A DNA stretch of 64,000 nt from Escherichia coli (GCF_003334405.1 NZ_QOWM01000006.1), one strand, 5' to 3'. Shown: positions 56,239 through 57,107, counted from the stretch's first letter. Numbers and translations are program-made. Notes: generated from the letters alone by a model not told the origin.

Positions 56239-57063
56239 TCACCGGGTCAAACCAACAAAGCGACCCGCCTTGATATAAATCCCAGGCTTCAGGTGCCCAA
56301 CATACTGTAACTGCGTTTCTGGCTTAAACGCAGAGACATCACCAATACGCATATGCATCAGATCGGCAGGGCTAATCCAGCCCGATTGCGCCAGTGTAAG
56401 TGGATGCCCGGCTTTGGCAAAGGCATCCGTGACAAATTCCGAACAAAACCACGACTTTTTGTCTCCTTCGCCCACACTGCTTAACTGCGCTTTCGCCAGG
56501 CCGCTGACGCACTGTTGGCGAAAATCCTCGGAGAACGGATTCAGTGAGCACATCTGGCGAGTCACCATAAAGGGAATAAATTCGACAATGCCGCGATAGT
56601 TATAACCGCTATCTTTGATTTTATTGGCAAACGCGGTGATATCTGTGGCTTGTTGCGGGGTAAGATCCGGGACTCGTAAGACGAAAAGCTTATCACTATG
56701 CTTCATCGCTTTTTTAAGGGAAACGATCTGGACGCCAGCGCCTGTCGCTTCTGCAACGTTATTATCACCCAGAAAGATTGCAACGTGACTCACAGAGGAA
56801 GTGCTGAAGACGCGGATTCCAAATGAGGTTACCCCAAGGCTTGAGGAGAACAGCAAATCGCCGGGTTTGAGATCAGGTGCCGTTATTTCTTTTATTGATT
56901 GTTCGGTGAAAGAGCTTTGATGCTGGAATTTGACAGCCCATGTTTTTGCCTCGGCATCTACTGCTGTGGCTGATGGGTCTGGCTGGCTGATATCAACGGT
57001 ACAAGCCGAAAGTAAAAGAAAGCTGGGGAGAAACAGGCGGCAGTACGCCTTTGGTTTATCCAT
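56239..57063 (-). CDS. yaeF: Probable lipoprotein peptidase YaeF (permuted papain-fold / NlpC-P60-like)
   Basis: ORF 56239..57117 trimmed to ATG 57063 (MDKPKAYCRLFLPSFLLLSAC..., 274 aa); lipobox LSAC. Confidence 0.88.
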   Translation of the reverse strand: MDKPKAYCRLFLPSFLLLSACTVDISQPDPSATAVDAEAKTWAVKFQHQSSFTEQSIKEITAPDLKPGDLLFSSSLGVTSFGIRVFSTSSVSHVAIFLGDNNVAEATGAGVQIVSLKKAMKHSDKLFVLRVPDLTPQQATDITAFANKIKDSGYNYRGIVEFIPFMVTRQMCSLNPFSEDFRQQCVSGLAKAQLSSVGEGDKKSWFCSEFVTDAFAKAGHPLTLAQSGWISPADLMHMRIGDVSAFKPETQLQYVGHLKPGIYIKAGRFVGLTR

Positions 57064-57079
57064 TTTATACAATCCATGT

Positions 57080-57107
57080 AAAAAAAGGGCCCTGAAATTC
57101 AGGACCC
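57080..57107 (-). terminator. Intrinsic terminator after proS (minus-strand hairpin GGGTCCTGA/TCAGGGCCC followed by U7), ending about 17 nt before the yaeF start codon
   Basis: Plus strand AAAAAAAGGGCCCTGAaatTCAGGACCC; one mismatch in the stem. Confidence 0.6.

Follow-up and report, generated by a model that had tools for sequence, protein, structure and literature searches.

Terminator read-through from proS as the probable route of yaeF transcription in Escherichia coli

The 64,000-nucleotide stretch of E. coli DNA analysed here (the window) carries, on its minus strand, the gene yaeF immediately downstream of the proline--tRNA ligase gene proS, with the proS terminator lying directly before the yaeF ribosome-binding region. 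This arrangement raises the question of where yaeF transcripts begin, and whether they must pass the terminator. Published transcript maps, motif scans and comparison of related junctions lead us to conclude, with a probability of roughly 0.8, that proS and yaeF form one transcription unit with a partial intrinsic terminator between them, in which yaeF is the distal gene and has no promoter of its own.

Layout of the proS-yaeF junction and its terminator

A 1.4-kb query around the yaeF/proS junction matched E. coli K-12 MG1655 and many other strains at 100%, and window coordinates correspond to U00096.3/NC_000913.3 coordinates minus 159940. In the annotated MG1655 record, tsaA and rcsF lie upstream of proS-yaeF and nlpE is convergent, on the downstream side; the proS-yaeF intergenic region measures 53 nt in the RefSeq annotation (Table 1). 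Of 5426 complete E. coli genomes, all but two (5424) carry the junction; the same count holds for yaeF. A distance of about 17 nt between the end of the hairpin and the yaeF ATG had been predicted originally, which agrees with the 16 nt counted from the end of the U tract (23 nt if counted from the last stem base).

Table 1 Features of the proS-yaeF locus in window coordinates.
Feature	Position	Strand	Basis or detail
Main proS promoter	58929..58897	minus	-35 TTGACA 58929..58924, 15-nt spacer, TG-extended -10 TAAACT 58908..58903, start 58897
proS CDS (proline--tRNA ligase)	57117..58835	minus	RefSeq annotation of MG1655 and ORF list
Weak sigma70-like candidate TCGACA-N17-AAATAT	57220..57192	minus	Single relaxed-scan match in 700 nt upstream of yaeF; predicted start ~57185
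proS stop TGA	57119..57117	minus	Sequence
Spacer from proS stop to stem, TGCCAGAAA, 9 nt		minus	Sequence
Terminator stem 5' arm GGGUCCUGA	57107..57099	minus	Sequence
Terminator loop AUU	57098..57096	minus	Sequence
Terminator stem 3' arm UCAGGGCCC	57095..57087	minus	Sequence
U7 tract	57086..57080	minus	Sequence; no gap after stem
Spacer from U tract to yaeF AUG, ACAUGGAUUGUAUAAA, 16 nt	57079..57064	minus	Sequence
yaeF Shine-Dalgarno GGA	57075..57073	minus	9 nt before AUG, within the 16-nt spacer
yaeF AUG	57063	minus	Sequence
yaeF CDS, 274 aa	56239..57063	minus	RefSeq annotation of MG1655
C-rich, G-poor first 250 nt of yaeF mRNA	56814..57063	minus	C/G 1.3-1.7, computed composition
Bicyclomycin-sensitive (Rho) termination region	56700..56715	minus	Centre 56707 (genome 216647); Adams 2021 supplementary file 2

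The proS hairpin (57107..57087, minus strand) is GC-rich, with 9 bp, including one G.U pair, closed by a 3-nt loop. Its predicted folding energy is -15.8 kcal/mol (z = -4.1) and reaches -20.5 kcal/mol when the flanking A:U pairs are included, values equalled in both cases by 0 of 200 shuffles. In the SMRT-Cappable-seq termination table, a site at 217019 on the reverse strand (window 57079) is paired with the transcription start site (TSS) 218837 in both growth conditions, and is flagged as the known b0194 terminator with an EcoCyc/RegulonDB centre at 217035 (Yan 2018, PMC6131387). The mapped 3' end is the base after the U7 tract, and genome position 217035, which is window 57095, falls inside the hairpin.

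Comparison of junctions from nine taxa, covering other Escherichia species, Citrobacter, Klebsiella, Enterobacter and Dryocola, revealed that all 9 core stem pairs are retained while the sequence varies, with double compensatory changes at stem positions 5, 8, 9 and 10 (C-G/G-C, G-C/C-G, and G-C/A-U twice). Franconibacter carries a different GC hairpin followed by U7 at the same place. The order of elements is also kept in Escherichia, Citrobacter, Klebsiella and Enterobacter: a stop codon, 8-13 nt, the hairpin, U6-8, then 15-18 nt with a Shine-Dalgarno sequence, and the ATG. Taken together, the mapped 3' end, the compensatory stem changes and the presence of the junction in nearly all E. coli genomes identify the hairpin and U7 tract as a real, canonical intrinsic terminator, which acts as a partial stop.

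Other searches for this terminator were less informative. The curated Term-seq 3' ends of Adams 2021 (PMC7815308) include none at 21700x-21705x. A consensus terminator scan did not report the proS hairpin, likely because the stem can extend into the T run; the four other hairpins that it listed came at the chance rate, and the scan was not used as evidence. A match of the Rfam rimP-leader family over the hairpin (23.5 bits vs a threshold of 47, E 0.97) was dismissed as chance.

Two further loci show longer spacers. In Intestinirhabdus (L011 2297..2500), the proS-yaeF spacer is ~200 nt long, and two copies of the same terminator hairpin flank an insert of ~150 nt. The spacer of a Serratia sp. 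(L012 2300..2500) is also ~200 nt long and contains a long imperfect palindrome between the halves AACACCCTG...CAGGGTGTTTT. In both, a hairpin and U tract still stand directly before the yaeF ribosome-binding site.

Transcripts that cross the terminator

The proS gene has two mapped starts in the TSS-seq data of Kim 2012 (PMC3415461), one at 218837 (window 58897) with 125 reads and a second at 218988 with 52 reads, the latter corresponding to window 59048, inside tsaA. Our consensus promoter scan passed over the main proS promoter because of its short spacer. From 218837, the supplementary operon table of Yan 2018 (PMC6131387) lists 'b0194|b0193' as a novel operon variant, alongside known units of 'b0194' alone that begin at 218837 and at 218988; the table further contains an rcsF-tsaA-proS variant with its start at 220022. 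Since operon annotation in that study was limited to genes fully covered by transcripts, the listed variant implies that capped, full-length molecules from the proS promoter that cover yaeF were observed. Co-transcription of yaeF with proS by terminator read-through has thus been shown experimentally in published data.

The extent of this read-through can be gauged only roughly from the termination table (Yan 2018, PMC6131387), in which the two rows for 217019 read 476/134/73/45/103 and 441/219/38/41/193. Depending on which column counts read-through reads, these values would tentatively place the read-through fraction at ~15-35%. If the last field (103/193) is the median extension, as in Figure 4b of that study, most read-through RNA may stop 100-200 nt into yaeF. 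Such leakage is ordinary in E. coli: read-through adds downstream genes at ~40% of termination sites, e.g., prs-dauA and dapA-bamC (Yan 2018, PMC6131387). Like these operon variants, proS-yaeF consists of co-directional genes with a hairpin and U tract between them and full-length co-transcripts, and it differs from them in that the downstream gene lies unusually near the U tract (16 nt).

The main competing explanation is that yaeF is driven mainly by a weak promoter of its own in the 3' end of proS (57220..57192, start ~57185), rather than by the proS promoter. The candidate, TCGACA-N17-AAATAT, sits inside proS, upstream of the hairpin, and a relaxed scan of the 700 nt before yaeF returned no other sigma70-like site. 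The predicted start corresponds by homology to the 7-read 5' end at 242859 in Klebsiella pneumoniae, in which proS-yaeF is syntenic; a second yaeF-assigned 5' end, with 4 reads, maps at 242886, and both fall inside the proS 3' end (Kim 2012, PMC3415461). These counts, however, are ~5% of those of the K. pneumoniae proS start (142 reads, same source), and a start at ~57185 is undetected in the E. coli TSS table of Kim 2012, in which yaeF is assigned a single start, supported by 3 reads and placed 659 nt upstream within proS (PMC3415461). The published full-length proS-yaeF transcripts begin instead at 218837 (Yan 2018), and conservation of the motif is uninformative because it lies inside a 94.6%-conserved coding sequence. 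Transcripts from this site would also be untranslated upstream of the hairpin, and should accordingly terminate more, not less, efficiently (Li 2016). We thus regard a main promoter at this position as quite unlikely.

Even an active start at this position would not free yaeF from the terminator, since any proS-internal start upstream of the hairpin must also be followed by read-through and is no true alternative to it. The original prediction had set a promoter within proS against read-through as an either/or: the operon table bears out read-through, but the choice itself dissolves, because both routes need the hairpin to be crossed.

Motif searches returned little else. The consensus scan of the minus strand from yaeF to tsaA found no sigma70-like site, and no sigmaE-, sigma54- or sigma32-like motif was found within 700 nt upstream of yaeF. 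Inside yaeF itself, TTGCCA-N16-TACACT (56393..56420, minus strand) was the only 9/12 sigma70-like match of the region scan, and we saw no start-site data in its support.

The published long-read and start-site data show RNA polymerase starting at the proS promoter (58897), many transcripts ending at the hairpin and U7 tract with a 3' end at 57079, and a fraction reading through, carrying the yaeF ribosome-binding site (57075..57073) and coding sequence. Ribosomes may influence the leak at the terminator, and Rho the fate of the read-through RNA.

Ribosomes and Rho at the junction

Between the proS stop codon and the GC stem there are 9 nt, or 4 nt when the stem is extended by its A:U pairs. 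This distance is of interest in light of the tR2 terminator, which is almost fully repressed when a stop codon lies 5-9 bp away and regains an efficiency of ~0.9 only beyond 30 bp (Li 2016, PMC4824070). Repression of tR2 needs translation and vanished when translation was uncoupled, and the ability of ribosomes to repress terminators is sequence-dependent, as seen for W18 vs R17 (Li 2016, PMC4824070). By analogy, a ribosome ending at the proS stop could cover the hairpin's 5' arm at the time when polymerase stands on the U tract, and, with the stop only 9 nt before the GC stem, the terminator would leak specifically on translated proS mRNA. The proS terminator resembles the ribosome-repressed terminators of Li 2016 (PMC4824070), including the pyrBI attenuator discussed therein, in that its 9-nt stop distance falls inside the 5-9 bp range. 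In contrast to tR2, a strong 3' end is still seen in vivo at the proS terminator, and this strong end at 217019 indicates that an occlusion effect, if present, is only partial.

The stop-to-hairpin distance is 9 nt in E. coli, 8-13 nt across Escherichia, Citrobacter, Klebsiella and Enterobacter, and 19 nt in Dryocola and Franconibacter, so that tight stop proximity is not universal. A stronger version of the occlusion model would take the conserved 8-13-nt spacing as a translation-coupled valve, with yaeF read-through occurring only when a ribosome follows close behind polymerase; we consider this version rather unlikely. If it were true, YaeF output would track the translation of proS mRNA (e.g., the availability of charged tRNA-Pro), Rho would form a further gate, and an envelope lipoprotein enzyme would be tied to the state of a tRNA synthetase gene.

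A second potential barrier lies within yaeF. The bicyclomycin-sensitive region centred on genome position 216647 has a score of 3.9 (p 4e-7), with 81 reads upstream and 19 downstream in untreated cells vs 122 and 112 with bicyclomycin (Adams 2021, PMC7815308). These values need to be read with care, as scoring used windows of 800 nt that take in the 3' end of proS, few reads were counted, and pervasive transcription is itself raised by bicyclomycin. The region lies downstream of the C-rich stretch at the start of yaeF, whose rut-like composition makes it a plausible Rho loading region. Most read-through RNA would then be cut short inside yaeF by Rho loading on this C-rich, G-poor and weakly translated 5' part, a step for which the evidence is suggestive. 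The pattern is similar to the intragenic Rho termination of poorly translated mRNA described in Adams 2021 (PMC7815308), in that a bicyclomycin-sensitive region lies in a coding sequence, and differs from those cases in that the substrate would be terminator read-through RNA, not a regulated 5' UTR. The net result would be that one promoter yields high ProS together with a small, doubly gated and very low YaeF output.

Alternatively, read-through could be functionless noise that Rho clears, with yaeF effectively silent in E. coli. The Rho region inside yaeF fits such a reading, as do the very weak start-site evidence for yaeF, the shortened YaeF variants in some E. coli records and, if the last field of the termination rows (103/193) is the median extension, an early end for most read-through. 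Against it, yaeF, the lipobox Cys, the catalytic His/Glu/Cys and the spacer bearing the Shine-Dalgarno sequence are conserved from Escherichia to Serratia, and 5424 of 5426 E. coli genomes carry yaeF. This conservation points to selection acting on a protein that is expressed in at least some condition, and makes a silent yaeF very unlikely.

Several signals were also noted on the opposite strand. Antisense to yaeF, a Rho termination region is reported at genome 216516, window 56576, on the plus strand (Adams 2021, PMC7815308), and the plus-strand Cappable-seq starts of Ettwiller 2016 include 216712 and 217144 (windows 56772 and 57204). Owing to the A-tract at its 5' flank, the proS hairpin could serve as a weak terminator for this antisense transcription too.

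The yaeF spacer, the YaeF protein and the downstream region

The 16 nt between the U tract and the yaeF ATG cannot hold both a promoter and a ribosome-binding site, in line with the original prediction that there is no room here for a conventional promoter. Neither the consensus scan nor the relaxed 700-nt scan found a promoter-like site that would initiate transcription beyond the hairpin, and the E. coli TSS table has no start in 57064..57079 (Kim 2012, PMC3415461), the interval in which a mapped start would have overturned that prediction. We conclude that yaeF has no promoter of its own after the terminator, with the caveat of a 4-read 5' end in K. pneumoniae MGH78578 (242744, minus strand), 13 nt before the yaeF ATG (Kim 2012, PMC3415461). 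This end lies 3 nt past the U tract, is homologous to window ~57077, and is not preceded by anything resembling a -10 element; it could reflect noise or the processing of read-through RNA. This 5' end would be accounted for if a promoter overlapped the terminator and started transcription in 57079..57064, giving a yaeF mRNA that never meets the hairpin, but four reads are close to noise or to what processing of read-through RNA could give, the E. coli table has no such start, and the -10 element would have to be formed by the U tract or by part of the GC stem (CCCTTT), with no -35, or at TATAAA (57069..57064), from which transcription would start inside the coding sequence, leaving this the least probable explanation by our estimate and a highly improbable one.

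Individual hexamers in and around the spacer were rejected as promoter elements. TATAAA as a -10 abuts the ATG, and at 17-nt spacing is preceded by GGGCCC, which is no -35. For TTTACA (57082..57077) as a -35, the matching -10 and start would fall inside the yaeF coding sequence.

The spacer is instead best read as the yaeF ribosome-binding region, judging from its conservation. It is invariant, ACATGGATTGTATAAA, in 7 of 8 Escherichia and Citrobacter sequences, the exception being an E. coli strain (L005) that lacks one A, and it reads ACAAGGA... in Klebsiella and Enterobacter, so that GGA or AGGA stands 8-10 nt before the yaeF ATG across all four genera. The annotated yaeF start is supported by all 14 homologues, which align from the same Met and have signal peptides of 17-20 residues. 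The yaeF frame also contains an earlier ATG at 57117, overlapping the proS stop (TGATG), and is open from there through the hairpin, which gives a 292-aa ORF. Translational coupling to produce a 292-aa YaeF was considered and rejected, as every other taxon examined either lacks the ATG or the frame or has an in-frame stop. Among 11 related junctions, the extended frame is intact in the K-12-type sequence only, and it looks like an accident of the K-12 lineage.

YaeF is, by sequence comparison, a putative lipoprotein of the YaeF family of permuted papain-like enzymes. It matches NCBIfam NF008552 with 534 bits (cut-off 279), residues 1-274 aligning to model positions 1-274, and Pfam PF05708 Peptidase_C92 with an E of 2.9e-8, along with a weaker NLPC_P60 match. 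The putative signal peptide, MDKPKAYCRLFLPSFLLLSAC, ends in the lipobox L-S-A-C with Cys21, in agreement with the pattern [LVI][ASTVI][GAS]C that we used to call lipoproteins, and Cys21 is invariant and preceded by A or G in 14 of 14 homologues (down to 50% identity). His93, Glu105 and Cys207 are invariant in the same 14 homologues; their order, His...Glu...Cys, with the catalytic Cys near the C terminus, corresponds to the permuted arrangement (His and a polar residue before Cys) defined in Xu 2011 (PMC3142127). YaeF thus resembles the permuted papain-like family of Xu 2011 (PMC3142127) in its HMM score above the curated cut-off and in its catalytic order, and, unlike that family, is a predicted lipoprotein with a signal peptide and lipobox and has no structure detectable by sequence, a PDB sequence search yielding no match at E <= 0.01.

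The function of bacterial YaeF/YiiX enzymes is called poorly understood in the literature, which ties the permuted YaeF/YiiX branch to the binding of lipids and to acyl-transfer or phospholipase reactions, not to peptidoglycan peptidase activity (including Xu 2011, PMC3142127). By family analogy, lipid or acyl compounds would be likelier substrates of YaeF than peptides. The initial description of an NlpC/P60-like lipoprotein with lipobox LSAC is borne out by the family matches and Cys21, while the label 'peptidase' that came with it is best treated as provisional. Shortened YaeF-like proteins occur in several E. coli records (P0085/P0086, 160 aa; P0050, P0055 and others); one example, 160 aa long with 78% identity, lies on 20 contigs of ~5.4-Mb genomes. 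From these records, some lineages may have yaeF alleles that are divergent or truncated.

On the downstream side, the convergent nlpE-yaeF intergenic region (56040..56238) holds a palindromic cluster of the REP/BIME type at 56118..56194 (plus strand), which has internal inverted repeats and matches Rfam RF02564 naRNA4 with 92.8 bits against a gathering score of 59.5, and a second REP-like copy at 56214..56234. This repeat cluster explains why the 1.4-kb query gave a median of 35 matches per E. coli genome. In strain CFT073, a study of the NsrR regulon places an NsrR ChIP peak and predicted NsrR sites at ~227553, between the strain-specific ORF c0233 and the downstream side of the adjoining yaeF (PMC5320621), a position taken by REP elements in K-12.

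The proS-yaeF variant and the proS terminator are both already in published tables and databases, and the arrangement is a common and ordinary one. To these, our analysis adds that a promoter inside proS would still leave the hairpin to be crossed, that four genera share the whole layout while their stems differ by compensatory changes, that the proS stop codon lies in the ribosome-occlusion range, and that the unit may be linked to an intragenic Rho region. Beyond correct annotation, the finding has little significance. With its conserved stop proximity, the junction would lend itself to the study of ribosome-dependent terminator leakiness in a natural setting; the principle as such is already established. 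For the annotation of E. coli, the proS terminator is not the end of the transcription unit, and yaeF belongs to an operon variant with a strong step-down in expression; a search for promoters upstream of yaeF, or a clone of yaeF with the intergenic region alone, will most likely miss its native expression.
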